This document shows, in pieces, positions 41,860 through 59,286 of a DNA stretch of 63,051 nt. The stretch spans positions 1-63,051 of the IMG/VR virus record IMGVR_UViG_3300036845_000466; one strand, 5' to 3'. The notes below the pieces were generated by a model. It saw only the letters and a list, made by a program, of their open reading frames with translations, did no database searches and was not told the origin of the DNA. Made by a program: the position numbers and the translations under genes. How positions within the stretch are numbered: the stretch's first letter is position 1; every line of letters starts with the position of its first letter. This DNA is from a virus (Duplodnaviria > Caudoviricetes).

Positions 41860-42771
41860 TCACACTCCAGACAGCAGGCAGATCGCCAGGGGCTGGTCGA
41901 GCCCGATGGCGGATGCCCGCTGGGTGTCCGAGCGCCAGGTCTTGCGCGGCTCGTCGCGGTAGAGGGGGCCGGCGAGGAAAGGCAGCTCGTCGGCGTAGAA
42001 GCCAGCCCGGCCGCGCTGCATCACGATCGCGTTGCCCGGCGGGATCTGGCGGGAGACCATCACGTCGAGGTTCTGGATCTTCTGCGGCAGCGTGCCGGAG
42101 TAGAGCAGGTTCTCGCTGGCGATGTCGCCGATGTACGGCGCGGCGAACGTGCTGCTCTGGAGCAGCGTGTTCTTGGTGCCGTGGTTGATGATCAGCGTGT
42201 CGGCTTCGAAGCCGAGCCACTGGGTGACGCCCGAGGGGCTGACCACGTTGGCGTTCTCGACCAGGTACATAGCCTGGGCGAGGTCCGCGCGGGTGGTGGC
42301 CGACGCGCTCGACCAGGGGTTGGCCACGGCCAGGGTCTGGATCGAGGCGTTGGCGACGACAGCCGAGTAGAACGCGGTGTTCCAGCTGTAGACCATCGTG
42401 TTCTTGACCTGGAGAAGCTGCCGCGTCACCGGGTCGATCGCCTGCCGGCGGCGCATCTCGTCCGACACCATGATCGCCATCGCCCGCTCGTGGCTGAAGA
42501 CCACGCGGGGGTTGCCGATCGAGGTGGGCACGACGGGAACCTCGCCGAACTCCGACCTGATCTCGGGGAAGTCGTCCGCGTAAAGCGGCGTGCTCTCCGA
42601 GTAGCGGACAGCGCCGCTGGTCGCGGCACCGCCCATCCGCAGAACGGTGTCCATGATGAACTCGTTCTGCGTGATGTCCATGATGAGCGCGGGAATGACC
42701 AGGGGGTCCTTCAGCAGCTCGTTGACGGTAACTCTGGGGCCGTCAGAAAACCCCCGTGCGCCGACTGGCAT
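41860..42771 (-). CDS. major capsid protein (HK97 fold)
   Basis: TVNELLKDP, SEFGEVP, VSDEMRRR...DPVTRQL, ADTLIIN, DQPLA; position after protease and decoration genes. Confidence 0.88.
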   Translation of the reverse strand: MPVGARGFSDGPRVTVNELLKDPLVIPALIMDITQNEFIMDTVLRMGGAATSGAVRYSESTPLYADDFPEIRSEFGEVPVVPTSIGNPRVVFSHERAMAIMVSDEMRRRQAIDPVTRQLLQVKNTMVYSWNTAFYSAVVANASIQTLAVANPWSSASATTRADLAQAMYLVENANVVSPSGVTQWLGFEADTLIINHGTKNTLLQSSTFAAPYIGDIASENLLYSGTLPQKIQNLDVMVSRQIPPGNAIVMQRGRAGFYADELPFLAGPLYRDEPRKTWRSDTQRASAIGLDQPLAICLLSGV

Positions 42772-43531: not shown

Positions 43532-44737
43532 TCAGATACCGACCTGGTTGCGGTACCGGCTCACGATGTCGTCGCGCGTCTGCTCGGCACGCTGGGAGGT
43601 GTCGGGCTCGTCCATCGTGCTGCCCAGCTCGCCGGACATGTCGAGCATCGACGCCGCCTTGCCGAACTCCGTCAGCACCCGGCGCATGACCAGCCCGGCG
43701 TCCACACCGTCGCCGTTGGCCAGCTCAACCGTGTGGCCGGTGCCCTCGAGCAGCGGCCGGGCCAGGTCGGTGATGTAGAGCGGGACGCCCTTGCCGAGCA
43801 GCTTCCGCTTCTCGTTCTCGAACGCCTCCTGGTCGGCCCGGCGCTGGAGCACGCCCATCTGCCGCTGGGTCTCGGCGAGCTGGTAGTTGGTCAGCTCGAT
43901 CTCGCTCATGCCGTAGCCGCCTTCGTTGGACAGGGACGCTCCGGCGCCTGCCAGGGCTGGCTCTTCGTCCAGCTCGTAGGCGGCGGTCAGCTCGGCGAAC
44001 TCTTCGTCCGTCATGCCGTTGATGGCGTCGACCAGCTCGTCGTCCTCGGTGGGCACGACCGGGTTGTAGCCGCCGGCGTCGCCGGCCGCAGCGGTGATGT
44101 CGGCCAGGCCGTCGATCGCCGCGCTCAGCCGGTCAGCGGGCAGGTCGAGCAGCAGCGCGAGCTTGGCCTGCTGCTCAGTGGTCAGTTCCGGCATGGTGAT
44201 GCCGCCTTCCTCTCCGGCGAACGTCGCCGCCGACAAGTCGATGATCATGTCAGGGGCGTTTGACATCTCCACGGCTTCCCACGCCCCGAGGTCGGGGATA
44301 CGGGGGTCCAGCGTGCCCAGGACGTGCTGGATCGCGGCCGGGAAGTACTTGCCGTCCGACCGTGCGTAGTCCTCCACGATGCGCGCGGAGACGCCGAGTT
44401 TCGGGTTGGTCAGCAGCAGCTTGTTGCCCTCGGGCGTCGGCTTCATCGTGACCCACAGGCCGTCGTTCTCCACGTTGACGCCGAGGATCTCGCCCCGGAA
44501 CCGCTCGGGGTCGTTCGTGTGCGTGTTGGCCGCGTCCGCCAGCTGGAACGGGACCTGGTTGTACGCCTGGCTGCTGAACGAGCTGGCCAGGGTCTCCAGG
44601 TACTTGCGGTCGAACGTCAGTACCCGGCCCTTGTACTCGATCTGCCCGACCGGCAGCACGCGTTTGCGCCAGATGCCGGGGTCGGCTGTCTGATGGGCGG
44701 GCGCCTTGCTGAACGGCAGGCGGATCTCGGCGGGCAC
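43532..44737 (-). CDS. Mu gpI-like prohead protease with C-terminal scaffold
   Basis: NTHTNDPE (His), GVSARI (Ser), HVLGTLDPRI; acidic coiled-coil C-terminal half. Confidence 0.82.
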   Translation of the reverse strand: MPAEIRLPFSKAPAHQTADPGIWRKRVLPVGQIEYKGRVLTFDRKYLETLASSFSSQAYNQVPFQLADAANTHTNDPERFRGEILGVNVENDGLWVTMKPTPEGNKLLLTNPKLGVSARIVEDYARSDGKYFPAAIQHVLGTLDPRIPDLGAWEAVEMSNAPDMIIDLSAATFAGEEGGITMPELTTEQQAKLALLLDLPADRLSAAIDGLADITAAAGDAGGYNPVVPTEDDELVDAINGMTDEEFAELTAAYELDEEPALAGAGASLSNEGGYGMSEIELTNYQLAETQRQMGVLQRRADQEAFENEKRKLLGKGVPLYITDLARPLLEGTGHTVELANGDGVDAGLVMRRVLTEFGKAASMLDMSGELGSTMDEPDTSQRAEQTRDDIVSRYRNQVGI

Positions 44738-44740
44738 CGG

Positions 44741-45481
44741 CTAGCTCGCCTTCGCGCCGAAGTTCTGGGCGCGCTTGGCCATCGCCAGGGCCACCTTCGG
44801 CGACATCCCCTTGGCGATCAGCTTTTTGTAGATCCCCTGGCCCTTGGGGGACAGGCCGCCGGGGCCGTCCTTGTCGGTGTCGCCGCTGGGGGTGCTGTCG
44901 TCGTCGCCGTCGTCGTCCGGGTCGTAGGCCAGGCGGATCGCGGGGACGCCGAACTGCTGCATGAGCGGGGTCTGCTGCGCCGGGGCCTGCAGCGGAGCGC
45001 CGGCGACCGACTTGTTGTACCGGCCGACCATCTCGATCAGGGCCCCGCGCTGGTGGCGGTGCGGGGTGTCCGAGTCCTTGTCGTCAACGGTAGGTACCCA
45101 GCCGCGCGCAGTCTGGCGGATCTTGCCGACCTCGTTGCCGCCGGACCGGTGGCGGACGATCGCGGTGCCGTCCGGCTGCCGCGACACGATCATGTCGCTG
45201 CCCTGCACCACAGGGAAACGGCGGGCCAGGCCGATCGCCCGCCCGCCGCTGTTGGCCAGGCCCATGTTCCCTGACGATGCGCCGCGCACCGTCAGCGGGA
45301 CTGTGCCGCTGCCGTTGGGCGCTCCCTGCGGGGCCCGCAGCGATTCGGAGCTGGAATCCGAGGTGCCCGACGCGCCGCCGTCGATCGCGAACCGGGCAGA
45401 GTCAGCCGCGTACCCGCAGCTCGGGCACTTCATCTTGCTGCTTCCGCCGTCTTCAGCGAAGCCGAGGTAATTGGGCGACAC
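44741..45481 (-). CDS. head-cluster hypothetical protein
   Basis: N-terminal CPSC; linker motifs ANSGGRAIGLA and PAIRLA. Confidence 0.72.
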   Translation of the reverse strand: MSPNYLGFAEDGGSSKMKCPSCGYAADSARFAIDGGASGTSDSSSESLRAPQGAPNGSGTVPLTVRGASSGNMGLANSGGRAIGLARRFPVVQGSDMIVSRQPDGTAIVRHRSGGNEVGKIRQTARGWVPTVDDKDSDTPHRHQRGALIEMVGRYNKSVAGAPLQAPAQQTPLMQQFGVPAIRLAYDPDDDGDDDSTPSGDTDKDGPGGLSPKGQGIYKKLIAKGMSPKVALAMAKRAQNFGAKAS

Positions 45482-45695: not shown

Positions 45696-46805
45696 CTAAA
45701 GCCCCCGGACATAGTTGTGGATCGTGTTGGCCACGGGAACGAGAGCCGATGCGAGCAGTGCCTGGACCGGGCTGAGTCCCTGAGTGATGCCGCCGATAGC
45801 CACGGCAAGGCCGGCTGCATTGAACAGGTTGTACATGACCAGTCGCGTACGGTCACGGTGGTCGTCGAGGCTCACGGATTTCGCGTGGGTCTTGCGGAGG
45901 GCGGCGATCAGCTTCTGCTGTCCCTGGTGCACCTGGGCCATGTTGCGCTGCAGCTCGGCGTGCTGCTGCTCGGTGATCTGACCGACTTGCCTGGCCACCT
46001 CGGCGGCCACTCGCGCGTCGATGTACGACTTGAGCGCGGCCATGCTGGCGCCCGGCTGCGCCAGGGCAGCCAGGGCCGGGTCCGTCTTCTGCAGCGCCTC
46101 GCCCGTTGTCTTCGCCCCGGCGTCGGCCGCTGCCTGCTGCTGCTTCCCGGCCTCGGCCTCCGCCGCCTGGGCAGGCGACGCGTAATGTGCCAGGCCGGAG
46201 TCCCGCAGCGCTTCGTCCCGGGACCCGAGCCGGGTAGGCGACGACGGGGCCGACGCCCGGTCCGCCGCCGCACTTGCCTTGGCCATCTTCGCCTTGTGCG
46301 CGTCGAGCAGGGCCTGGTGCTCCGGGGTCAGCTTCCGGCTGCCGGCGACCGGAGGCGCCGGCGCGAGCTTGGCTGACGCCGCCCTGGCCGCGTCTTTTCT
46401 GGCGGCCTTGGCCGCCTCTGCCTGCTTCTGTGCCAGCCAGCCAGGCTGCACGTCGTTGAAGAAGTTGCCGACCACGGGTATCCAGCCGTGCCGGAAGGTG
46501 TACGCCGTACCGGGGATGTGGTGGTGGCCGATCGCGGCCAGCTCGATCTGCTCGCTGACCGTCATCGGCTGCGACAGCTGCGCGGACATCAGGCGGGGAC
46601 CGGGCGGCGGGTCCGTGTTCACCGCGCTGGCCAGGCGGGACAGCATCGACGCCGCGTCGCGGATCTCCGGCAGGTCGGCCGGGTCGGCCCGCGCCGCCAG
46701 CTCGTTGACCTGCTCGAGCGCGGGCACCGCCCGCGCCTTGGGGTCCTGCCAGGCCCAGCGCGCGATCGACCGCGCCTTGGCTCCGGCCGCCGTCATCTGG
46801 GTCAT
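45696..46805 (-). CDS. head-cluster modular protein, coiled coil plus C-terminal hydrophobic helices
   Basis: EQIELA followed by FRHGWIP; two hydrophobic segments at the C-terminus. Confidence 0.72.
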   Translation of the reverse strand: MTQMTAAGAKARSIARWAWQDPKARAVPALEQVNELAARADPADLPEIRDAASMLSRLASAVNTDPPPGPRLMSAQLSQPMTVSEQIELAAIGHHHIPGTAYTFRHGWIPVVGNFFNDVQPGWLAQKQAEAAKAARKDAARAASAKLAPAPPVAGSRKLTPEHQALLDAHKAKMAKASAAADRASAPSSPTRLGSRDEALRDSGLAHYASPAQAAEAEAGKQQQAAADAGAKTTGEALQKTDPALAALAQPGASMAALKSYIDARVAAEVARQVGQITEQQHAELQRNMAQVHQGQQKLIAALRKTHAKSVSLDDHRDRTRLVMYNLFNAAGLAVAIGGITQGLSPVQALLASALVPVANTIHNYVRGL

Positions 46806-49800
46806 GCCGCTGCCCTCTCTCCCGCGACCTCGGCCGCGCGCTGCGATGCCTTCAGCCTGGCATGCTGGAAAACCGATTGCGGGTCCCCGCCCCAGTCGTT
46901 CAGTATCGAGTTTCGGACAGACGGCAGGATCTTCGCAAGCTCTGCCTGGTCAGTGGTCATGTCAGCGGCCACGTGCCGCGCCATGACCATGATCTTCTCC
47001 GAGGTGCCCTGCGCGTTCACCTCGTCGCTGATCCGCTGGATCTCTGCGAGCGTGGCCGGGTCGTCCTCGCCCTTGCCGGTCCGCATCTGCGCGACCAGCG
47101 ATGTCCACTCAAACGCCTGCCTGGTCTCGGCCGCGTAGTGGTCCCACGCGTTCCCCGAGCGAATCCTGGCCGGGGTGTTCACCACGGCGGCGTACTCGCT
47201 CATGGTCAGGTGATCGCTGACAGGTATGTCCATCATCTTGAACTGCTTTTCCTGGAGTCTGTCGACGGCTGCCTTGACGCCCTTTACCACAGCCCGCTCG
47301 TTCATCGTCGCCCACAGGGAGTTGTCCCGCAGCAGAGTGCGCGCCTGGAGGATAACGTCGTCCAGCACATAGGGATCATCTGTGTCGTCGAGCCGGCCGA
47401 CCCCGGAGATCAGTGCGTCCAACGCATTGGCCCTGGCCTCGGACGGCCGGACCTCGAGCAGCTTGTCCCGCAGCGACGCCAGGGCAGCCTGGGCATCCTC
47501 TTTGGCCGCCGTGAATTCGGGGCTGTCCCTGTCTGCCTGGGCCATCATCAGCGTCTTGCGGTCGCCGACGCCCTGCTGACGGAAGAAGTCAGCGGCGTGC
47601 TGGATGGTGCCCAGCTCGGTGAAGCCTTCCTCGATCTCGGCGGCGGCGTAGCTTCCCTGGTACGCCTGCTCGTCGCCGTTACTCTCCCGGTGCTGGCCCT
47701 CTGGCACCACCGCGTGGATCATCTCGTGCAGCGGGACGGTGTAGTTGTCCGGCGCCTCTATCGGCCGGTCAGGGTGCACCTGGTCTTCGCGCAGCCCCGA
47801 GACCACGGTCCTGAGCATCTCCATGTGCCCGTTCCAGTCCATCACCGCCAGCAGCGTTCCCCGCAGGCTGGGCCTGGTTCCCGGCGCGAAAATTGTCGGT
47901 GCCTTGCCGTCCCAGTCCAGGTGCCCGCCAGGGCCGAACAGGGCGGGCAGACTCTGTGCCGACTTGCTGGTCATGTCCTTGACCAGCTGTTCTCCTGGGG
48001 TGAGCGGGTGGGCGTCCTCGAATACCTGCGGCTTGGTCCGGGCGGCGCGCTCGGCCCGGTCGGCCGCGTTGAACAGGCTGTGCAGCGACGCGGTGTCAGT
48101 TTCGGTGTCGCTGACGCTGGCGTACCCGATCGCCAGGCCGATCTTGAACCTGGCCGCGTCCAGGTCGCCGCGCGCTGCCGCGTCCTTTGCCTCGACTAGG
48201 GAGTACCGCACGTCAGGGTCAGACGTGGTGTCGATGCGCGCCTGGAGCGCGTCGCGCAGCTTGCCGTTCGGGCCCATGAGCCCGGCGCCGTCGCGGACCC
48301 ATTCGCCGTGGCGGCCTCTTAGCTCATGGCGCCAGGCGTCGTGCCATCCGAGGGCGATGACCTGCGCAGCAATCCCGCCCGCAGAGCTTCCCCGATCTCC
48401 GCCGCCGCCGCCAGGCGCTCGTCCTCCGGCAGGTCCCAGTAGCCCGGGGGCACCGCCACGTGCACCTTGGTTGGCGTGGTCGATGATTCGTCCGCCACCG
48501 CTGCCTCCCGTGTTGATGGTGCTGAAGGTGTTGAGATCGAAGATCCCCACCTGGTCGCGCGCCCGGCCCAGCTGCTCAGCTGTCGCACGGTCTGGTACGT
48601 TCTGCGACGGGTCCAGCCACAGTTTACCGTCTTCGACCCACCCGCCGAGGTACATGTCCCGGCCCTGGAACGACTCGCGCTCGGCCATCAGCATGTCGTC
48701 GATCGCCTTGTGCAACTTCTCCGGGTCGTCCAGGATCGCGGCCGGGTAGCGGTGCGTGTGGCCGTCGAGCGCGACCATGTAGCCGCCGGACGGCGCCGAT
48801 CCGGAGTAGGGCGAGACGCTGAACCCCTCGCGCTCTTTCTCCATCACCTTGACGGCTTCGCCGACCCCGCCGAACTTCGTCCACCGGCCGTGCGAATCGC
48901 GCGGCTCCATCTGCCAGTCCAGCTCGATGACCTGCTGGCTGATCAGGTGCGGGGTGGCATCGAGCATGGTGGTGCCCGGGTACGTCGGGATTTCCTCGGC
49001 CGCCGCCAGCTTGCCCCAGGCCGCCCAGGAATTGCGCATCTGGGTGGCCTGACCTTTGTTGACGTTTCCTGACAGGTCGGCGGCCTCGTTCTCGTCCTGC
49101 TGCTGCAGCCAGGTGATCGCCTGCAGCTGGTGCGGGGCGACCGTCACGCCGTCTCTCTGGCTGATCATCTTGGCGGCCAGGCGGTACTGGTCGGCTACGT
49201 AGGCGTAATGACGCTCTTTGCCGATCGGGGCGAGGTCCGCTTCCTTTTTCGGCAGCCGCTGGCCGATGGCCACCGTCATGGCGTGCCGGTCAATCACCAC
49301 GTCGCCCTGATCGTCGCCGGGCATGTCGCCGCCGTTGCGGATCAGCCTGGCGAACGCCCTGGTCTTCGGGCTTGAGTTGGCTACGTCGGCCGGAGCACCG
49401 TCGATCGCTTTCTGGGCGTTGGCCTGCATCGCCGTGGTGATCATGCCCTCGCCGGGGCCGAGGGCCCGGCCCATCTCGAGTGACCGGGCCGCGTTCATCA
49501 TGTTGGACGGCCAGCCGGTCTGCGGCGAGTATGCGGCCAGCACGCCGGCGCCCTTGTCCGCATTCCCTCCTGCGAGGGCTTTGGCGATCACGTGGGCGTC
49601 GGAGTACCAGCGCATCCCCTGCTGCTTGATCGGATCCGGCGCCCGGTCGTAGCTGGCGACGATGTGCTCCGGGCTGACCGGGTGCGCCTTGAAGAACGGG
49701 TGGTCGGCCGGGTCCGGCGGCCGGCCCCGGTCGCTGATCAGCCGCGCGTGGTCCGGCTGGCCGTAGTCCTTGCCTGCCTCGCCGAGCAGTTCCCCGGCCT

Positions 49801-50062
49801 TCGTCCACTCGCCGTGCTCGTTGCGCAGCTCGCCCGGGTTGTACCGCCAGCCGAACTCGACCGGCTCGTCAGGTTCTTCGATGACGGATATGTACCCGTT
49901 GTTCTTGCCTGACAGCGCCCGGTACGCCGCCTGCGCGCTGCCCTCGCGCCGGAGTACGTGATCCGCCATTCCCTGGATGCCACGGGTGGTGCCGCGCAGC
50001 CTGCTGCCTTCCATGTGAATCCGGCCGAGCACCCGGCCGCCGGAGTAGACCGCGAGAGACAT
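46802..50062 (-). CDS. polyvalent protein: HhH-GPD-like module, uncharacterised module and zincin metallopeptidase
   Basis: PKTRAF...VVIDRH...LQAITW; GYMVA...YLGGW...DQVGIFDL; HEMIH...EEGFTE; three R-x-x-H-G-x-W tags. Confidence 0.8.
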   Translation of the reverse strand: MSLAVYSGGRVLGRIHMEGSRLRGTTRGIQGMADHVLRREGSAQAAYRALSGKNNGYISVIEEPDEPVEFGWRYNPGELRNEHGEWTKAGELLGEAGKDYGQPDHARLISDRGRPPDPADHPFFKAHPVSPEHIVASYDRAPDPIKQQGMRWYSDAHVIAKALAGGNADKGAGVLAAYSPQTGWPSNMMNAARSLEMGRALGPGEGMITTAMQANAQKAIDGAPADVANSSPKTRAFARLIRNGGDMPGDDQGDVVIDRHAMTVAIGQRLPKKEADLAPIGKERHYAYVADQYRLAAKMISQRDGVTVAPHQLQAITWLQQQDENEAADLSGNVNKGQATQMRNSWAAWGKLAAAEEIPTYPGTTMLDATPHLISQQVIELDWQMEPRDSHGRWTKFGGVGEAVKVMEKEREGFSVSPYSGSAPSGGYMVALDGHTHRYPAAILDDPEKLHKAIDDMLMAERESFQGRDMYLGGWVEDGKLWLDPSQNVPDRATAEQLGRARDQVGIFDLNTFSTINTGGSGGGRIIDHANQGARGGAPGLLGPAGGRAPGGGGGDRGSSAGGIAAQVIALGWHDAWRHELRGRHGEWVRDGAGLMGPNGKLRDALQARIDTTSDPDVRYSLVEAKDAAARGDLDAARFKIGLAIGYASVSDTETDTASLHSLFNAADRAERAARTKPQVFEDAHPLTPGEQLVKDMTSKSAQSLPALFGPGGHLDWDGKAPTIFAPGTRPSLRGTLLAVMDWNGHMEMLRTVVSGLREDQVHPDRPIEAPDNYTVPLHEMIHAVVPEGQHRESNGDEQAYQGSYAAAEIEEGFTELGTIQHAADFFRQQGVGDRKTLMMAQADRDSPEFTAAKEDAQAALASLRDKLLEVRPSEARANALDALISGVGRLDDTDDPYVLDDVILQARTLLRDNSLWATMNERAVVKGVKAAVDRLQEKQFKMMDIPVSDHLTMSEYAAVVNTPARIRSGNAWDHYAAETRQAFEWTSLVAQMRTGKGEDDPATLAEIQRISDEVNAQGTSEKIMVMARHVAADMTTDQAELAKILPSVRNSILNDWGGDPQSVFQHARLKASQRAAEVAGERAAA

Positions 50063-50991
50063 CAGCTCTCCGTCCCGATGGCGTACTGGTGCATCTGATC
50101 AAAATTCATCATCATGTTCTGATACTCGTAGTCCATACCGTACTTCTCGAAATACGGCTTCAAGTTATTGAGCCCGGCCTGCCATTCTGTCCACTGCTCA
50201 GCCGGGAACTGCACCAGCGACTCGGGCTCGTTCCACAGATCCTCGCCGAACGGACCGGAGCCTGACTTGTAGTTGTCGACTTGCCAGGACAGGTTGCCGT
50301 GGTCGATAGGTACGGGCACGTCACCGTCTTTGGCTGTGTGGTGCACCATCCAGTTACCGAAATGCCGGTCGCCGTTGCCGGTCAGGTTGTCCAGGAGGCC
50401 GATCCGCTCGCCCTGGGGGCTGATGTACTCGTTGTACGGGTCATTGTCACCGAGAGGGTCCTCGTCCTCGTCGGTTCCGCCCATCCACTCGATAGCCGGC
50501 TTGGCACCCCTGGCGTACTCTTCCCACAGCTCAGGATCGGTGTCCGGCCCTGACCGCTGGGCTACCACGCCAGGCGCCCCGGCGCCGACGACATCAGAGA
50601 TACGCGATGCGACGATCTCGTTGGCCTCGGTCTGCATGCCCTGGCCGCGCTTACGGACCCACTTGTGGCCGTTGTTAAAGGTGACCACCTGCGTGTCCGC
50701 GCTGTTCCCGAAGTAGTTGGCGTTTCCGCCTGCCTGCACCAGGCCGCGCTTGGCGTGCGGCTGGCTCTCGGACTTGATGCCGCTCTCCTGGTCCGCCGCC
50801 AGCTTCGCCAGCAGCTCCTGCTCGCGGTGCTCCGGGTCGGGCCCGTGCTGGATGTGCGGCATTCCCGGGAACGTCTCCTGGAGAAAACCGTGGCCGAGCC
50901 CCTTGACCCACTTGCCGTCCCGGCCGCGCCGTTCAGTAAGCCAGGCGGTATCCCAGCCTGCGAACTCGGTGACCTGCTGAGAGATCAGCAC
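50062..50991 (-). CDS. HipA/PI3K-PI4K-like kinase
   Basis: VRK lysine, NEIVASRI, LDNLTGNGDRHFGNW catalytic loop, PIDHG. Confidence 0.82.
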   Translation of the reverse strand: MLISQQVTEFAGWDTAWLTERRGRDGKWVKGLGHGFLQETFPGMPHIQHGPDPEHREQELLAKLAADQESGIKSESQPHAKRGLVQAGGNANYFGNSADTQVVTFNNGHKWVRKRGQGMQTEANEIVASRISDVVGAGAPGVVAQRSGPDTDPELWEEYARGAKPAIEWMGGTDEDEDPLGDNDPYNEYISPQGERIGLLDNLTGNGDRHFGNWMVHHTAKDGDVPVPIDHGNLSWQVDNYKSGSGPFGEDLWNEPESLVQFPAEQWTEWQAGLNNLKPYFEKYGMDYEYQNMMMNFDQMHQYAIGTES

Positions 50992-50997
50992 CGCGCC

Positions 50998-53529
50998 TCA
51001 CAGCGCCTTGGCCTGCGCCATCGCCGCGCGGTACTGGTTCTGCAGCTGGACGATCTGCGTGTTCAGCGCCGCGATCTGGCTCTTCAGGCCGGCGGCGCTC
51101 GTGGACGATGCAGCCGTGGTCGACTTCGAAGTAGAAGCAGTAGAACTTTTGGCAGCGGTAGAGCTGGTAGAAGCGGTAGAGCTGGGCGTCGTAGCCGCGC
51201 TGCTCTTGGTGGTCGAGGCGCCGCTGGACGTGGTGCTGCCAGCCTGGCCGCTGCTGGTCTTGCCCGACGCACTGGCCAGGGCCTTTCGCAGGGCGTCCCG
51301 CTGAGCGATCAGTGCGTCGGCCTTGGCCCGGTACCCGGCCGCCTGCTTGATCAGCGCGGCTTTCTTCTGCGCGTTGCTGCTGGTCTTGGCCGGGGCCTTG
51401 GCCGTCGCTGCCTTGGTGGTGCGCGGGCCGCCCTTGCTCGAGGTGGCCGGGGTCGTCTTCGATCCGCCGCCTGAGCCGAACGTGCCGAGCGGGGTCCGGC
51501 TGTCCTGCGCCGCGCCCGCTGCCGTGCCGGTCAGCTCGATGATCCTGCGTGCCAGCTCCTGCCGTCCGCCGGTCTCCCAGCTGGCCGCGATATTACGGCT
51601 GGCTCCTGCCCGCGCCCGCGCAGTTGACCGGGCGTGGTTGGCACCTGCCTGCGCCCGCGCCAGCGCGCTGCCGCCGGCGGCGTACTTCTGTGCAGCTGCC
51701 GTTCTGGACCTGTATTCAGGCGTTGCGGCGGGCAGGGCTGCCAGGCCGTGCCCCTTCGGCAGGGCGGAGAGCTTGTCTGCGGCTGCTGCCAGGCGGCCAG
51801 AGTACGCCGGGTCGGCCCGCTCGGCTACGGCGGCGCTGCGCAGCGTGCCGGCGTGCACGCGGGCAAGCGACGGCTGCTTGCGGTCGATCATGGTGGCCGC
51901 GCGCCGCAGCGCCCGGCCGGTGTCAGACTCCGGCGCCCCGGGGCGGTCGGTGCCCGAGCCCACGCTAGTGGCCTCGCGGCTGGCCGGGCCTTCGGCCGAC
52001 CCGCGCAGGGTGGCGTAGTTGTGCTGCTGGTGGGCGTCGGCTTCGGTCGCCAGCCGGCGCAGCTCGGCGGCGTGCTCGGCGCTGCCGGGGGCGGCCTTCA
52101 TCGAGCTGCGGGTCTCTGCTGCCTGGCTGGCCCGGTGGCTCTTCACCAGGGCGCGGTCGATCGCGGACAGCCCGGCGCCACGTGACCACTTGCCGTCCCG
52201 GCCGCGCGGCTGCATCGGGTTGTACGCCAGCTCGATGATCTTGGCCGCCAGCTGCCTGTTCGCGGTCATCGCGTCTCCCTGGTTCGAGTGCGCGTGAGCG
52301 CGTGCCTGCTTGGCCCGCCAGTCAGCATCCGACGCAGCCGAGGCTGCGCGGACCTCGGGCTTGGTGTTCTTGCCGACTTCCCAGCGCTTAGTGGCGCCGC
52401 GCGCGATGGCGATGGCCTCGCTCAGCGTCTTGGCCCGGCCGGTCCGCAGCAGCGCGTGCGCGATGTTCTGGACGTAGGGCGGCAGCTCCATGTCTTTGAC
52501 GTGCCAGAGCCCCGGGCCGCCCGGCTTGCCGAACGGGTGCGGCACGCTCGCCAGGCGGGCGGTGTCAGCGGACAGGCCGATGGCCGTGGTCAGGTCGCCG
52601 TTGGCGGTCTGGATGGTGCCGCCGTACTGTCCCCGTGACTTCAGCTCCTGAAGAGACTGGTTGACCTTGCCCTTTTCTTTGAGCTTCGCGGTTACCGCCT
52701 TGGCGGCGTCCTGTGCGCTCATTCCCCGGCTCATAAGCTGCTGCACGGTGGCTACGGCGTTGGCCGGTGTCACGTTGTTCAGGATCTGCTCGTGCTCTGC
52801 ACCGCTCGTGATGTTGGCTATGTCCCGCATAATCGGGGCGTTGACATCCGGGTCGCTCATGACCCCGGCTGTCAGTGCGCTGCGTGCAACGGAGTCTGCA
52901 GCGGCTTTGATCCATCCGTGGATATACCCCTTGGGGCCGACCAGTTCGATAGCCGTGGTCAGGTCGCCGTTGGACGCCGCCACCTGCTTGGACTTGTGCG
53001 GGTCTGTCAGCGCGACCGGCTTGGCCACCGCCGGGTCCGGGCCGCCGGAGTTGGTCCGGGCCGGAGCGTTCAGCGCCTTTTCGAACGGCTGGCGGGCGGT
53101 CGGCCGCTCGTCCAGGCTGTCGTCGCCCGGCTCGGGGCTGCTGTCGCCCTGACGCGGCAGCTGGTTGTTGTACGCCTGGGTGTCCTGCACGTCCTTGACC
53201 AGCAGCAGGTGCCGGTGGATCGCGTCCATCGAGCGCTTGGCGGCGTCGTGATGGTCGTCGGTGAGCAGGCCGTGCCGGCGCAGCGACTGCGGCGTCATGT
53301 TGCCGATCGCCGCGTTCAGGTGGCGCACCGCGCCCTCGGGCTGGTTGCGGTCGAGCGCGGCGGCGGCGTCGCGGATATGGTGGTGCGCGCCCATCTCCGG
53401 GTGCCTGGACTTCATGTCGTCGGCCAGCTTGCGCATCGACTGGGCCGTGGCCTTGCGCAGCGCGGCTACCGGCTTGTACGGGGGGACCAGCGGCGGGCGG
53501 TAGCCAGGGCGGGCAAGGTTGATCGTCAT
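50998..53529 (-). CDS. modular head-cluster protein
   Basis: 843 aa with several I-[EG]-L linkers, a PRGRDGKW tag, an S/T-rich tract and a terminal coiled coil. Confidence 0.78.
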   Translation of the reverse strand: MTINLARPGYRPPLVPPYKPVAALRKATAQSMRKLADDMKSRHPEMGAHHHIRDAAAALDRNQPEGAVRHLNAAIGNMTPQSLRRHGLLTDDHHDAAKRSMDAIHRHLLLVKDVQDTQAYNNQLPRQGDSSPEPGDDSLDERPTARQPFEKALNAPARTNSGGPDPAVAKPVALTDPHKSKQVAASNGDLTTAIELVGPKGYIHGWIKAAADSVARSALTAGVMSDPDVNAPIMRDIANITSGAEHEQILNNVTPANAVATVQQLMSRGMSAQDAAKAVTAKLKEKGKVNQSLQELKSRGQYGGTIQTANGDLTTAIGLSADTARLASVPHPFGKPGGPGLWHVKDMELPPYVQNIAHALLRTGRAKTLSEAIAIARGATKRWEVGKNTKPEVRAASAASDADWRAKQARAHAHSNQGDAMTANRQLAAKIIELAYNPMQPRGRDGKWSRGAGLSAIDRALVKSHRASQAAETRSSMKAAPGSAEHAAELRRLATEADAHQQHNYATLRGSAEGPASREATSVGSGTDRPGAPESDTGRALRRAATMIDRKQPSLARVHAGTLRSAAVAERADPAYSGRLAAAADKLSALPKGHGLAALPAATPEYRSRTAAAQKYAAGGSALARAQAGANHARSTARARAGASRNIAASWETGGRQELARRIIELTGTAAGAAQDSRTPLGTFGSGGGSKTTPATSSKGGPRTTKAATAKAPAKTSSNAQKKAALIKQAAGYRAKADALIAQRDALRKALASASGKTSSGQAGSTTSSGASTTKSSAATTPSSTASTSSTAAKSSTASTSKSTTAASSTSAAGLKSQIAALNTQIVQLQNQYRAAMAQAKAL

Positions 53530-54215
53530 GCAGCTCTCCGGTATGTAGCGGCCTCCGGCAGGCCGAAGCTAGGAACCAGCCGGGCCCCGGGGAACGGAGA
53601 GCCCGGCTGGCACCGGCAGTGCGTGTGCACTGCGCCTGGGTAGCCGATCAGTGGCATGTGATCAGCGTAGAAGTTCCGGCCGTCTGCGGCCAGGCACTCC
53701 CTGCTTGTGTGCGCGTCGCGTTTTGCGTGCCAGCCCAGCAGCCGGCCGTACGTCATCGCCGCGCTGTCTGTCTGCGCGCCTGCCTGGCTGCGGTTCCAGA
53801 TGGCGACCAGGTGCTGCGCGTAGTACCGGCGCTCACGCTGTACCGACGCCGCCAGCTGACTGCTAATTGAGCGCCCCTGGCTGCGTGCGGCGGTCAGGTC
53901 GGCCCCGATCCGCCGGGCAGCGTTGATCGCGAACTGGGCGCGGCGGGTCAGGTTCAGCCGCTCGGTGGCCAGGGTGGCCGGGCCGTAGGCGCCGGTCTGA
54001 CCTGGCGGGAAGCTGATCACGATGTCGAGCGCGGCGAGCATGGCCTGCCTGGGCACGCCCACTGCCCGGACGGACTGGTAGACCCCGGCCACGGCCACGG
54101 CGGCCGACGTGGCGGTCAGCAGCGCCAGGCTGACCGCCGTGATCAGCGCAGCGTCACTCGGCGGCGGAGGCGGGGTCTGTGGCGGGGGCGGGGACTGCGG
54201 CTGGGTTGTCGGCAT
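53526..54215 (-). CDS. MuF/SPP1 gp7-like head morphogenesis protein
   Basis: W...D..TSREC...DG...PGAVHTHCRC. Confidence 0.82.
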   Translation of the reverse strand: MPTTQPQSPPPPQTPPPPPSDAALITAVSLALLTATSAAVAVAGVYQSVRAVGVPRQAMLAALDIVISFPPGQTGAYGPATLATERLNLTRRAQFAINAARRIGADLTAARSQGRSISSQLAASVQRERRYYAQHLVAIWNRSQAGAQTDSAAMTYGRLLGWHAKRDAHTSRECLAADGRNFYADHMPLIGYPGAVHTHCRCQPGSPFPGARLVPSFGLPEAATYRRAA

Positions 54216-55040: not shown

Positions 55041-56675
55041 TCATGCCATCCGCCCCGGCGGCGGGGACATCGCGGGCTTGGGCGGCGGGCCGGCCGCCGT
55101 GTTCGGCATCTTCAGCCCAGGCACCGCGCCGCCCCCGCCCCCGCCTGCGCGGGCGCCCGGCGGCGGCGGCGGCCGGAGCCCGCCGTTGCTGTTTCCGTGC
55201 TGTGCAATCAGCCCGCCGGCTGCCTGCGTGAGCCCCTGCAGACCGCCGAGCGCGCCGGCTGCCTCGGGCGGCATGCCAGGGGGCGGGTTGCCTGCTAGCT
55301 GCTCTGCCCGCTGGCTGGCCGTCGACACCAGGGCGTCATGCACCTGGTCCACGTCGAGCTGGAGGATGGTGGCCATCCGCTCGGTGATCAGGTCGAGCAC
55401 CGGCACCGGGATGTGCAGCGCGGGCGCGGCGGCCAGCTGGCCGAACAGGGTCAGCAGCGCCTGGATCTGCTCGTCCTGCAGCGGGCCGAACTTGAACGTC
55501 GGGAACGCGGCCTTCGAGCCGTAGTTGACGATGATCAGCGGCCTGATGATGCCGTAACTGAACGACTCGGCTATTTCCTTGGACACAGCCTGGCGGGACT
55601 TCAGGTAGAACGACGACTGGTCCTGGCTCAGCGCGTAGCTGCCCTTGCCGCCGGTGGCCGAGCCGGTCAGCGCCATGAATCCGGCCAGGACGGAGTGCGT
55701 CTGCCAGCCCTCGAGGAAGCCGAGCGCCTCCTGGAAGAACTTGCCGCCGTCGCCGCCCGACTCGATCGTCTCGAACGCCTTGCCGTTGTCGGCCGGGCGC
55801 ACCAGGCCGACCACGCCGGAGGACTTCAGCTCGGAGATGTCAGACGCGCGGCTGTTGGCCTCGGGCTGGTCGTTGCCGTAGACCACCGTGCGGGGCAGCG
55901 CCTGGTTCTCCAGGAAGTGGTACCAGAGGTAGAGCAGCTTCATCTTGGTCTGGTAGCACCAGTAGGAGATCTCCATCTCCGACGTGCCGGTCAGCGGTTC
56001 CTGCTCTTTGCCGTGCGTGTAGATGTAGCTGCGCACCTTGGGGATGTCGACGTACCCCGGGACTTTCTGGTGCTGCGTGACCTGCAAGTTCCCGCCGAAC
56101 AGCCAGACCTGCTGCCTGAAACCGTTCTGCTCGCCTGTCCGGTCGTTGTACCGCGCCTGGCAGGTGGCGGGCGGCCGGTAGGCGATCTTGTCGTAGATGA
56201 TCTTCTCGTCTTCGTCGCGGACCTTGAAGGTCTTCTCGAAGAACGACCGCCGGTAGATCTGCGCGGTAGTAATCTGCCCGATCAGCTCGTGGACCGGGGT
56301 ACGCATTCCGCCTTCGGTGTCGGGCGTCATGATCACCGAGTTGATGAATTCGGCCTCGCCCTTGTCGCCCTTGGCCGGCTCGATCGAGAAGTCGGCCTCG
56401 CGGATCGGGAGGGTAAGCACCAGGCGCACCGCGTTCGCCACGCCGTCACGGGCGAACATCGTCTTCATGTCACGGCTGGTCCACTCACCGTAATCGAACA
56501 CATCACCTTCGCCGTAATAGGCGAACAGGCGCTGTCCCCAGTCAAACTGGGTGCCGATCTCGGGACCCATCAGGGCCCTGCGGCCACCGTAGGGTTTGGA
56601 GCCAGGCGGGGCGATATCGGGGAACTCAACGACGTTGCCGCCGCCGGGCACCTTGAATCCCTTGCCAGTCGCCAC
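55041..56675 (-). CDS. portal protein (Mu gp29/DUF935-like)
   Basis: RDGVANAV...LTLPI, SFFEK, GSYALS, IIRPLIIVNYG; downstream of terminase. Confidence 0.88.
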   Translation of the reverse strand: MATGKGFKVPGGGNVVEFPDIAPPGSKPYGGRRALMGPEIGTQFDWGQRLFAYYGEGDVFDYGEWTSRDMKTMFARDGVANAVRLVLTLPIREADFSIEPAKGDKGEAEFINSVIMTPDTEGGMRTPVHELIGQITTAQIYRRSFFEKTFKVRDEDEKIIYDKIAYRPPATCQARYNDRTGEQNGFRQQVWLFGGNLQVTQHQKVPGYVDIPKVRSYIYTHGKEQEPLTGTSEMEISYWCYQTKMKLLYLWYHFLENQALPRTVVYGNDQPEANSRASDISELKSSGVVGLVRPADNGKAFETIESGGDGGKFFQEALGFLEGWQTHSVLAGFMALTGSATGGKGSYALSQDQSSFYLKSRQAVSKEIAESFSYGIIRPLIIVNYGSKAAFPTFKFGPLQDEQIQALLTLFGQLAAAPALHIPVPVLDLITERMATILQLDVDQVHDALVSTASQRAEQLAGNPPPGMPPEAAGALGGLQGLTQAAGGLIAQHGNSNGGLRPPPPPGARAGGGGGGAVPGLKMPNTAAGPPPKPAMSPPPGRMA

Positions 56676-57636: not shown

Positions 57637-59286
57637 CTACCGCCAGTCGACGTGGTTGGCGCGCGGTCCCGGGGCGGTCGCCTCGGTCTGCGGGGCAAAG
57701 TCGTCCAGGTCCCAGCCGCCGCCGGCGTGGTCGAGCAGCCCGCCGTGCGCGCCCTTCAGCCGCTTGCGTGAAATACCGCTGGCCGGCCGGTCGACTCCTG
57801 CCTGGCTGTCGATCTCGTCCTTGGCCGCCCACTTGAACGCCTTGGCCTTAGTCGGCACGTCCTCGAACGTGGCGTTCAGGAACGGCGTGCACGCCCATAC
57901 GAGGGAGTCGAGCCGGTCAGGCGACCGCTCGTCCTTGGCCCCGGTGAACGTAGCCATCTGGTCTTCCAGCTCGGCCAGCTTCACGATGTCGCGGTGCCAC
58001 TTGGTCGCCCCGGTCTCCGGGTCGACGATCTCGTAGGTCTGGCCGTCGTAGCAGTGCCTGACCACGCCGCGCTCGTACAGCGCGCTGACCGGTTCGGCCC
58101 GGGTGCGCTTGGACTTCGACGCGTCGACCACGGTGACGGCCGGCCGGTTGCCGTCCGGTATCTGCCCGGAGTCGTCGAGCTGCTTCATCACCTGGGCGAA
58201 CACCGTGGTCAGCCAGCGCCCGCCGTGGTTCTTCTCCACCACGATCGTGGCGTGCCACTTCACCGCCTCGAGGATGACCCGGCGCGCGAACGCGGCGGGC
58301 GGCTCCTGGCCGCCCCAGTTCTTGGCCACGTAGAGCGAGCCGGTGAACATGCCGGCGATGGTGTACGCCTGCTCGTCGCTCGACTCGGTGCCGTCCGATG
58401 GGTCGACGCCGATGATCGCGCGGTGCAGGTAGTCCGGGCCGCCTTCCTGGCCGACCATCGGCACCTGGATGCCGTCGAGCTGGTCGCGCGTCCACAGCGC
58501 GTTGGCCACGTCCTCGAGCAGCTCGCCCTCCAGCTCCTGCCGCTCGAGCCGGGTGCCCTTGGCCGAGCCGACCACGGTCCGGTAGAACGCGCTGGACAGG
58601 TTGGCCACGTTGTCGACGGTCCGCAGCTTGCGGGTGATCACGCCGCCCTCGCCCGGGTCGTTGCGGATCAGCGAGCGCACCAGCGCGCGGGCCGGCCGCG
58701 ACGCCTTGGGCGTGCCGGTGGCGATGATGACCGACTCGCCCATGCGGACCGCGTACTTCAGCGACTCGTTCCAGGTGGTGTCCCACTTGTCCCACAGGCC
58801 CACCTCGTCGCACCAGGCGGCGCGCAGGTTGCGCCCCTGGATGCGCAGGCCGCCCTCGGCCGCGCTGTCGGCGTAGATCACGATACCGTTGTGCAGGATG
58901 ACCTGGCCGTAGGTCCGCCAGGCCGACCTGACCGTCTTGCTCGTGTGGCTCTTGATCTCTTTCATCGACGTGCCGAGCGCCCGCAGGATGCCGCTTTCGC
59001 CCTCCACGCACTTGGTCCAGGCGTCGGCGTAAGTCGGGGCGACGATCGCGTACTCGCCCTCGCCGCCGGTGTCGGCCATCACCAGGTCGGCCAGGCCCTG
59101 CGCGCCGGCCCGGGTCTTGCCCGACCCGCGCCCGCCCTGGAGGTAGAAGACGCGCCAGGTGCCGTCGCGCTTCGGCAGCAGCTGCTCAGGCCGGGCAGTC
59201 ATCCGCCAGGCCAGGCGCGGGTCGTCGGGGGTCTTCCCGATTCTCGTCTCGAAAAGATCCAGCGCGGCGAGGTCGCGGTTGGTCAC
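57637..59286 (-). CDS. terminase large subunit
   Basis: GGRGSGKT, AWCDE, TGTP, IGVDPS, VVEKNHGG, SPDRLDS. Confidence 0.95.
   Translation of the reverse strand: MTNRDLAALDLFETRIGKTPDDPRLAWRMTARPEQLLPKRDGTWRVFYLQGGRGSGKTRAGAQGLADLVMADTGGEGEYAIVAPTYADAWTKCVEGESGILRALGTSMKEIKSHTSKTVRSAWRTYGQVILHNGIVIYADSAAEGGLRIQGRNLRAAWCDEVGLWDKWDTTWNESLKYAVRMGESVIIATGTPKASRPARALVRSLIRNDPGEGGVITRKLRTVDNVANLSSAFYRTVVGSAKGTRLERQELEGELLEDVANALWTRDQLDGIQVPMVGQEGGPDYLHRAIIGVDPSDGTESSDEQAYTIAGMFTGSLYVAKNWGGQEPPAAFARRVILEAVKWHATIVVEKNHGGRWLTTVFAQVMKQLDDSGQIPDGNRPAVTVVDASKSKRTRAEPVSALYERGVVRHCYDGQTYEIVDPETGATKWHRDIVKLAELEDQMATFTGAKDERSPDRLDSLVWACTPFLNATFEDVPTKAKAFKWAAKDEIDSQAGVDRPASGISRKRLKGAHGGLLDHAGGGWDLDDFAPQTEATAPGPRANHVDWR

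Follow-up and report, generated by a model that had tools for sequence, protein, structure and literature searches.

A short peptide motif precedes the modules of phage polyvalent proteins and recurs in toxin-like proteins of alphaproteobacteria

Introduction

It is an open question by what means the polyvalent proteins of phages are cut, retained in the head and delivered. Iyer, Burroughs, Anantharaman and Aravind (2017, PMC5512222) proposed that these proteins are processed by zincins, and their paper does not appear to name a site at which processing would occur. The IMG/VR virus record IMGVR_UViG_3300036845_000466 (Duplodnaviria; Caudoviricetes), which at its full length of 63,051 bases constitutes the window analysed here, bears on this question and offers one defined peptide per module as a concrete handle on it. 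The record has about 68% G+C and is estimated to be 69% complete. Between its genes for a MuF-like minor head protein and the major capsid protein lie four tightly coupled cargo genes, and a short tag of the pattern R-x-x-x-G-x-W recurs in their products. A first-pass annotation had noticed this tag behind a short linker and had suggested that it addresses otherwise unrelated enzymes to the capsid or portal channel, as a functional analogue of T4's capsid targeting sequence. The motif proves to be real and widespread, to occur once per module, to form part of the module downstream of it and to lie in flexible stretches. At a probability of about 0.4, our preferred reading is that it serves as a module-leader recognition and processing signal of phage polyvalent proteins.

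A recurring tag in four cargo genes

The four genes encode proteins of 843, 309, 1086 and 369 amino acids (P0003, P0002, P0001 and P0004, respectively), and the tags of the window lie in them. All five peptides of the R-x-x-x-G-x-W type (class 1) and both peptides of a second class are present in the translations, each on the minus strand. Three class-1 tags reside in P0001. The first, together with a PVEF linker-like stretch, occupies residues 69-88 (49799..49858; 37.0 bits) ahead of a DUF7178 domain, with its Arg at residue 80 and the R-x3-G-x-W core at 49805-49825. The second and its linker span residues 374-397 (48872..48943; 40.5 bits; Arg 388, core at 48881-48901) ahead of a small alpha/beta module at about residues 428-520. 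The third, in whose linker Ala replaces Glu, spans residues 564-597 (48272..48373; 40.0 bits; Arg 582, core at 48299-48319) and abuts the C-terminal helical and HExxH-containing region (597-1086). In P0002, linker and tag form the extreme N-terminus (residues 1-30, 50902..50991; 26.7 bits; Arg 22, core at 50908-50928), and P0003 carries an internal linker and tag at residues 428-451 (52177..52248; 28.2 bits; Arg 442, core at 52186-52206). The class-2 peptides follow other linkers, class 2a at residues 193-210 of P0003 (52900..52953, minus strand; the peptide itself from residue 204, 52909-52920) and class 2b at residues 84-112 of P0004 (46470..46556, minus strand; from residue 106, 46479-46490). 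Both subtypes are conserved among related phages, 2a in homologues of the 843-aa protein from L006, L008, L010 and L016, and 2b in homologues of the 369-aa protein from L006, L008 and L014.

The loose pattern R-x3-G-x-W is weak on its own: translating the window in six frames yields 28 occurrences, 23 of them outside the reading frames of the cargo genes. Within the 2,607 residues of the cargo proteins, its five occurrences compare with a mean of 0.24 and a maximum of 4 in shuffled sequences, and none of 20,000 shuffles reached five. A stricter pattern, written after the sites were known, has five six-frame occurrences in the window, all at these sites, and was matched in 1 of 20,000 shuffles. 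Independent support comes from a profile built solely from 49 tags of other phage records. When run against 563 six-frame open reading frames (ORFs) of the window (91,304 residues), it returned exactly the same five sites, their i-Evalues ranging between 4e-12 and 8e-8; the next match had an E-value of 1.0. The recurrence reported by the first-pass annotation is thus borne out, as is its second tag class. Four of the five class-1 sites are preceded by a hydrophobic-hydrophobic-Glu-Leu/Phe linker; the fifth is the site with Ala in place of Glu.

Form and spread of the motif

In its general form the motif is about 20 residues long and reads K-[YF]-[DNS]-P-x-[QE]-P-R-D-x-x-G-R-W-T-G-G, with a Gly-rich spacer behind it. 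A logo of 660 anchored copies gives, in order, K, K/A, Y/F, D/N/S, P, x, Q/E, P, R (100%), D (86%), x, x, G (100%), R/K/E, W (95%, with F in 4%), T, x, G and G. The values of 100% for R and G arise because the copies were anchored on a pattern that requires both; the two residues are independently invariant in an alignment of 54 rows. Conservation of the core extends over many phyla.

When a profile of 54 tags was searched against 1.84 billion cluster representatives, it matched 2,196 protein clusters at E<=0.001, 455 of them at E<=1e-10 and 26 at E<=1e-30. Since most proteins with a single tag fall below the threshold, 2,196 is a lower bound. Up to 10 matched stretches occur in one protein. 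The best 150 proteins together hold 675 tags, a mean of 4.5 each, with a median spacing of 246 aa and a median of 307 aa after the last tag, so the repeating unit is a tag followed by a domain. In 75 of these 150 proteins the first tag lies no more than 40 residues from the start. A linker of the type hh[ED]L (two hydrophobic residues, Glu or Asp, then Leu) stands beside just 107 of 660 tags in the same set; the linker is a feature of particular lineages and the tag is the general element.

What do these proteins contain? An HExxH motif is present in 76 of the 150, as compared to 6 of 150 after shuffling. Pfam domains were surveyed in the 6 top proteins and in 18 sampled systematically from the best 150. 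MuF was found in 2 of the 6 and 1 of the 18, and DUF7178 in 6 of the 18, alongside GNAT, HNH, PARP/ART-like, Tpt1-like, histidine phosphatase, inorganic pyrophosphatase (InPase), topoisomerase IB, LPD1 and Arr domains and a lethal-factor-like zincin label. Such a set is typical of polyvalent proteins. One tag-bearing protein of 1,840 aa (P0041) has six HExxH motifs about 245 residues apart together with six tags, and nearly every module in it seems to be a zincin. Another open frame, of 2,912 aa (G046:C1:43911-51683), carries 9 of the 11 tag matches of a viral record of 74,412 bases and lies about 29 kb from the portal gene.

The motif appears to have escaped description. No Pfam family covers the tag positions in the 4 window proteins, in 17 proteins of relatives, or in the 6 and 18 representatives, and a search of 8 proteins against NCBIfam gave no match at E<=1. 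A profile search of PDB sequences produced no real match, the best being a designed protein at E=1.5. A literature search with spellings of the motif found no paper. Iyer et al. 2017 does not appear to name an inter-domain motif in its text, and its supplementary alignments may hold one (PMC5512222); Jamet et al. 2017 does not appear to mention it (PMC5576092), and a preprint on phi24B mentions a packaged polyvalent protein and no motif. As for cultured phages, searches with P0001 and with a six-tag representative identified none that carries the tag. The 91 phage records matching P0001 all do so through DUF7178 only, none over 80% of its length, and the 189 that match the six-tag representative do so through MuF only.

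The tag belongs to the module behind it

The position of the tag relative to folded domains can be gauged from an AlphaFold model of P0001, based on an alignment of 11 sequences and with a mean pLDDT of 61.3. Confident domains are predicted at residues 103-329, about 440-520 and 597-1086. They alternate with low-confidence stretches (1-102, 330-438 and 522-596, pLDDT <50), each of which contains one linker and tag. The tags themselves, at pLDDT values of 22-47, show no packing against the domains in the model. DSSP assigns a bridge between the R and W of two of the three tags (residues 80/86 and 388/394), which hints, at low confidence, at a tight hairpin.

Comparison between phages indicates to which neighbour the tag is tied. 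In pairs of different phages, how alike two tags are tracks the domain downstream (identity 0.53, n=45 pairs) and not the one upstream (0.39, n=22), against a baseline of 0.37 (n=745; p=0.0013), as expected if the tag is the N-terminal edge of a module, which the first-pass annotation had supposed. When P0001 is compared with its relatives, 34 of 57 internal ends of homology blocks lie within 15 aa of a tag, versus 8.6 expected, a count inflated by matches to the tags themselves. The same tag stands ahead of unrelated folds. In proteins that begin with Met, 520 of 585 tags are internal. Tags within 30 residues of the Met start score a median of 25.1 bits (n=65) and internal ones 24.5 (n=520; p=0.16). 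Many ORFs of the window's lineage begin directly with the linker.

Linkage to phage head genes

A scan of viral contigs with an alignment of the five tags identified 11 loci, of which 8 are syntenic relatives of the window and 3 are distant. The syntenic relatives share the order portal, MuF, a homologue of the 843-aa protein, a variable cargo region, homologues of the 369-aa protein, of a 246-aa protein and of a 401-aa protein, and capsid; wherever MuF lies within the stretch covered, the 843-aa homologue follows it. Their cargo regions are shuffled, with DUF7178, ADP-ribosyltransferase or Arr-like, zeta-toxin and kinase-like domains in varying orders and fusions, and each cargo domain is preceded by a linker and tag. 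In the 3 distant loci, the tag occurs without the linker and is followed by Gly-rich stretches. In one locus (L012:5656-9093), the portal is fused to an inorganic pyrophosphatase and a tag, and after it come a multiply tagged topoisomerase IB protein and a tagged MuF protein.

In viral contigs, 101 stretches matched a degenerate DNA pattern written for the core, and the tag was confirmed by profile in 98 of the 99 loci read. Gene neighbourhoods were sampled in the 47 listed viral records of at least 15 kb, all of which contain tags. MuF was matched in 18 of the 47, a PF04860 portal in 21 and a Mu-type portal in 11; 13 records had no such anchor in searches with PF04233, PF04860 and PF06074. 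In 30 of the 34 anchored phage records, a tag lies within 10 kb of a portal or MuF anchor. Among the anchored records of at least 40 kb, this is true of 12 of 15, as compared to 5.1 expected under random placement (P=4e-4). Six viral records have tag and MuF in one ORF. In eight records (G043, G045, G047, G057, G062, G079, G081 and G087), tag ORFs lie 3-9 kb upstream of a high-scoring PF04860 portal on the same strand and, unlike in the window, not between portal and capsid.

A chromosomal family of toxin-like proteins

The same DNA pattern, which is biased to high-GC codons, also matched at least 120 blocks in genome contigs. Among the matches listed, 100 of 120 genome blocks have a confirmed tag, which is present in a single copy in 93 of the 100, and most come from alphaproteobacterial metagenome bins. 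Also among the matches listed, a conserved N-terminal domain of some 110 residues is common to 59 ORFs, 48 of which carry the tag. Members of this family (L017-L136, for example L092:5149-6597 and L033:2046-3533) are 200-500 aa long and several are encoded per genome. They consist of the N-terminal domain, the tag, a low-complexity stretch and a variable C-terminus, often a REase-type toxin. In 4 of 9 family proteins scanned, the C-terminus matches Tox-REase-5 or a CDI EC869-like domain, and among homologues it is PF21111 or has no Pfam domain; a tenth protein in that scan came from Gemmata and is not counted here. The tag thus sits at the border between a conserved N-terminal domain and variable toxin domains. 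The 120 listed homologues are all unnamed or "hypothetical", save one named after a domain label.

The surroundings of these genes are those of an ordinary chromosome. Neighbours include GMP synthase, acyl-CoA dehydrogenase, CCA/poly(A) polymerase and dihydroorotate dehydrogenase, and of 10 neighbouring ORFs 8 belong to ordinary families and none to phage families. Scanning 38 whole genomes with the tag profile located the tag 85 times, in 32 of them. Just 4 of these matches, from 3 genomes, have a MuF or PF04860 portal match no more than 10 kb away, and 81 are farther off or on another contig, a count that covers MuF and PF04860 only, so some linkage may escape it. One of the four linked matches is a chain of portal, MuF and tag in a single ORF. 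A profile of the N-terminal domain matched 0 of 150 phage-type proteins. Judged by sequence, the motif ties the cargo proteins of phages to an uncharacterised chromosomal family of toxin-like proteins. By these counts, linkage to head genes is a property of phage records that largely does not extend to bacterial genomes, and homologues apart from head modules, which the first-pass annotation had named as evidence against its idea of an address, do occur.

What the tag may do

The favoured reading is that of a signal for recognition and processing. The leader would have a core of about 20 residues, extended to about 30 through the hh[ED]L linker in the window's actinobacterial-type lineage, and would occupy flexible sequence just before each deliverable enzyme module, where a processing or handling factor could read it in trans. 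The scissile part would be just upstream of the leader or within it. In the window's lineage, the cut may fall after the Glu or Asp of hh[ED]L, much as certain prohead proteases cleave after Glu. The R-D-x-x-G-R-W turn would then act as the recognition determinant and stay on the released module, and the protease may be a zincin in cis or the candidate prohead protease, the 401-aa protein. This reading is ranked first because there is one copy of the motif per junction, zincins are frequent, the linker resembles the Glu-cut sites of SPN3US, linker-like sites recur in the 401-aa protein, and the motif also marks the junction with toxin domains in the chromosomal family.

Several observations weigh against it. 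Tags at the N-terminus, where no more than a leader of 5-30 residues could come off, equal internal ones in conservation, and the motif has about 12 conserved positions, more than most protease sites need. HExxH is absent from 74 of the 150 tag-bearing proteins, no protease domain was found in the alphaproteobacterial proteins scanned, and the 401-aa protein has no match in Pfam, PHROG or PDB sequences that would place it in a protease family. With hh[ED]L beside no more than 107 of 660 tags, cutting after Glu cannot hold in general, and cleavage at the linker is a proposal drawn from sequence and analogy. Self-cleavage at an Asn-Pro or Asp-Pro pair was considered separately. The residue before Pro is D in 31% of tags, N in 24% and S in 23%, and the pair is missing in 3 of the 5 window tags; with no uniform chemistry at this position, the idea was dropped.

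Is the tag instead an address for the capsid, or for ejection? It could dock a module to portal, MuF, scaffold or the capsid interior, or lead it into the portal and tail channel. Much of the phage evidence is in keeping with such a role: the proximity of tags to portal or MuF in 30 of 34 records and in 12 of 15 long ones, the six ORFs in which tag and MuF are joined, the equal conservation of N-terminal and internal tags, the way the tag travels with the module behind it, its flexibility and its Gly-rich spacer. There is also precedent in the internal proteins of T4, which are described as sharing only their targeting sequence (PMC3012670). The bacterial genomes speak otherwise, with 4 of 85 matches close to MuF or a PF04860 portal in 32 genomes and tag genes amid housekeeping genes. 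Moreover, proteins that are already joined to portal or MuF would have no need of an address, and for packaging several copies in one polypeptide would be redundant. Two portal families (PF04860 in 21 of 47 records, Mu-type in 11) and a detectable MuF in only 18 of 47 leave no common receptor evident. Given its presence in bacterial toxin genes far from phage heads, the tag is probably not simply a capsid address, and we consider this role rather unlikely. A role in delivery or in the recipient, as a handle for threading or unfolding from the N-terminus or as a site read by a recipient factor or protease, would unite the phage and chromosomal contexts, whose proteins share the motif and no other domain (0 of 150); it also agrees with the single tag that always stands ahead of an effector module and with a core conserved across many phyla. 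This role too appears unlikely, somewhat more so than the address.

A different explanation would place the function in the DNA, as a patch of homology for module swapping that encodes a functionless peptide. Homology blocks do end at tags, and module order does vary among the 8 syntenic relatives. However, the window copies are only 71-94% identical at the DNA level over 16-40 nt, with no long exact repeats, and it is the amino acids that are conserved, R and G without exception and W nearly so, in distant phyla and in N-terminal copies just as in internal ones. Because conservation is at the protein level, a pure recombination junction is improbable. Far less probable still is that the tag is a structural piece of each domain or a solitary repeat of Rhs/YD type. 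The R-W bridge in two of the three modelled tags would fit a tight hairpin, and there is a loose likeness to the Y-D-x-x-G turn of RHS repeats. Yet the tags are modelled as unpacked from the domains (pLDDT 22-47) and precede unrelated folds, comparison of the tag profile with 11 RHS repeats in hhalign gave a probability of 0.14%, and no scan returned a Pfam RHS match. The boldest possibility, which we regard as speculative and unlikely, is that R-D-x-x-G-R-W is a portable, universal leader, such that any domain behind it is treated as cargo, being released, retained and transferred into another cell. One and the same signal would then serve phage heads and an unrecognised delivery route of chromosomal alphaproteobacterial toxins.

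Whichever role applies, the motif gives a concrete handle on the cutting, retention and delivery of polyvalent proteins. Its invariant R and G and the W found in 95% of copies are targets for mutagenesis, and at least 2,196 clusters are available for comparison. The tag also allows huge unannotated proteins to be split into modules and new effector domains to be found. Should it turn out to direct loading or delivery, proteins of choice could be placed with its help in the capsids of laboratory phages. If the leader were universal, it would be the first signal for packaging or delivery that phage cargo and bacterial toxins have in common, and a general means of bringing selected proteins into capsids.

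The cargo genes and head module of the window

The record is that of a high-GC siphophage. Replication genes are on the plus strand (family A DNA polymerase, SNF2 helicase, PD-(D/E)XK nuclease and AAA_24), and the minus strand carries the siphophage structural module, including a tape measure protein and a GH25 lysin. The head genes run in the order terminase, portal, MuF, four cargo genes, 246-aa protein, candidate protease-scaffold protein and capsid, all on the minus strand. The large terminase is at 57637-59286 and the Mu-type portal protein at 55041..56675 (PF06074, E=9e-31). The gene at 53526..54215 is assigned to the MuF-like minor head protein from synteny and a PF04233 match (E=3.9e-5) whose 24.8 bits are under the cut-off of 29.6. 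The major capsid protein is encoded at 41860..42771 (phrog_1650, E=2.6e-72).

Directly after MuF comes P0003 (50998..53529, minus strand), a cargo or hub protein without a confident Pfam or PHROG family. P0002 (50062..50991, minus strand) is PI3/PI4-kinase-like, its PF00454 match of 25.7 bits being just below the cut-off of 27.1, and in L010 and L016 this kinase-like domain is fused into larger polyvalent proteins. At 50992-51000 on the minus strand, the P0003 gene stops at TGA and the GTG start of P0002, with GAGG 4 nt upstream, follows two codons on in the same frame. Read-through of the stop would fuse the two proteins exactly at linker and tag; ordinary re-initiation is equally possible. 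P0001 (46802..50062, minus strand) comprises DUF7178 (residues 132-319), the small module and the C-terminal region, which contains the protein's one HExxH motif near residue 790, with a Glu-rich helix downstream; motif and helix are also present in relatives. This region has no Pfam match at E<=0.1. Residues 1-65 of P0001 (49868-50062), ahead of its first tag, form a separate small ORF in L010 (11803-12285) and L016 (6009-6203). P0004 (45696..46805, minus strand) carries the class-2b tag. With DUF7178, an apparent HExxH zincin and a kinase-like domain among their products, the four genes can be recognised as a split "polyvalent" cargo set.

Further downstream, the 246-aa protein (44741-45481) has a degenerate stretch resembling linker and tag, hydrophobic-Arg-Leu-Ala-Tyr-Asp-Pro followed by an acidic run, and its homologues in L007, L008 and L009 form the C-terminal part of larger ORFs. 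The 401-aa protein (43532..44737, minus strand) was aligned with those of 7 relatives. Its N-terminal half is strongly conserved, with invariant His, Ser and His positions, and its C-terminal half is acidic and coiled. Two conserved linker-like sites lie in this scaffold half in 8 of 8 aligned phages. It is likely a protease-scaffold fusion of the Mu gpI type; as family and PDB matches are lacking, the protease role is putative.

Comparison with known systems

Short peptides that direct or demarcate proteins are known from several systems. The cargo-loading peptides of encapsulins are short and portable, are usually C-terminal, and direct unrelated enzymes into a shell of HK97 fold by binding the shell protein. 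The tag differs in not being confined to shells. In T4, the capsid targeting signal is a single N-terminal leader that is removed. The tag, in contrast, would lie after the presumed cut, is internal in most copies and repeated inside proteins, and is found in chromosomal toxin genes as well as in head cargo genes. What the two have in common is a short peptide shared by head-cargo proteins that are otherwise unrelated (PMC3012670). In addition, ORFs of the window's lineage start with a linker that resembles a short leader ending in Glu.

That linker also invites comparison with the sites of prohead proteases. For instance, gp21 of T4 is a prohead protease with sites after Glu. The prohead protease of SPN3US (gp245) is described as cutting after A-x-E and removing N-terminal propeptides (PMC10052503). 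Similarly, four of the five window linkers end in hydrophobic-x-Glu followed by Leu or Phe, and comparable sites are present in the 401-aa protein. The systems differ in that the candidate protease matches no known family and most tags elsewhere lack this linker.

Polymorphic toxins have junction and cleavage motifs at the border of the N-terminal domain and the variable toxin domain, including "pre-toxin" motifs such as VENN of CdiA and the end of the Rhs core. The alphaproteobacterial family has the same arrangement, in which a short conserved motif immediately precedes a toxin domain that varies. The sequence is a different one, the phage tag is repeated many times per chain, and no secretion system is linked to it.

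The cargo proteins themselves can be compared with the polyvalent proteins of phages and conjugative elements, described as large chains that combine numerous unrelated effector domains, are encoded next to portal, MuF and terminase genes and frequently contain an HExxH zincin (PMC5512222). P0001 and P0002 provide at least two unrelated effector domains per chain or gene array, and they are encoded in a head module beside portal, MuF and terminase whose order is kept in the 8 relatives. The InPase, LPD1, ART, MuF and DUF7178 domains found here fit the set described for these proteins (PMC5512222). In the window, by contrast, the chain is split into four translationally coupled genes.

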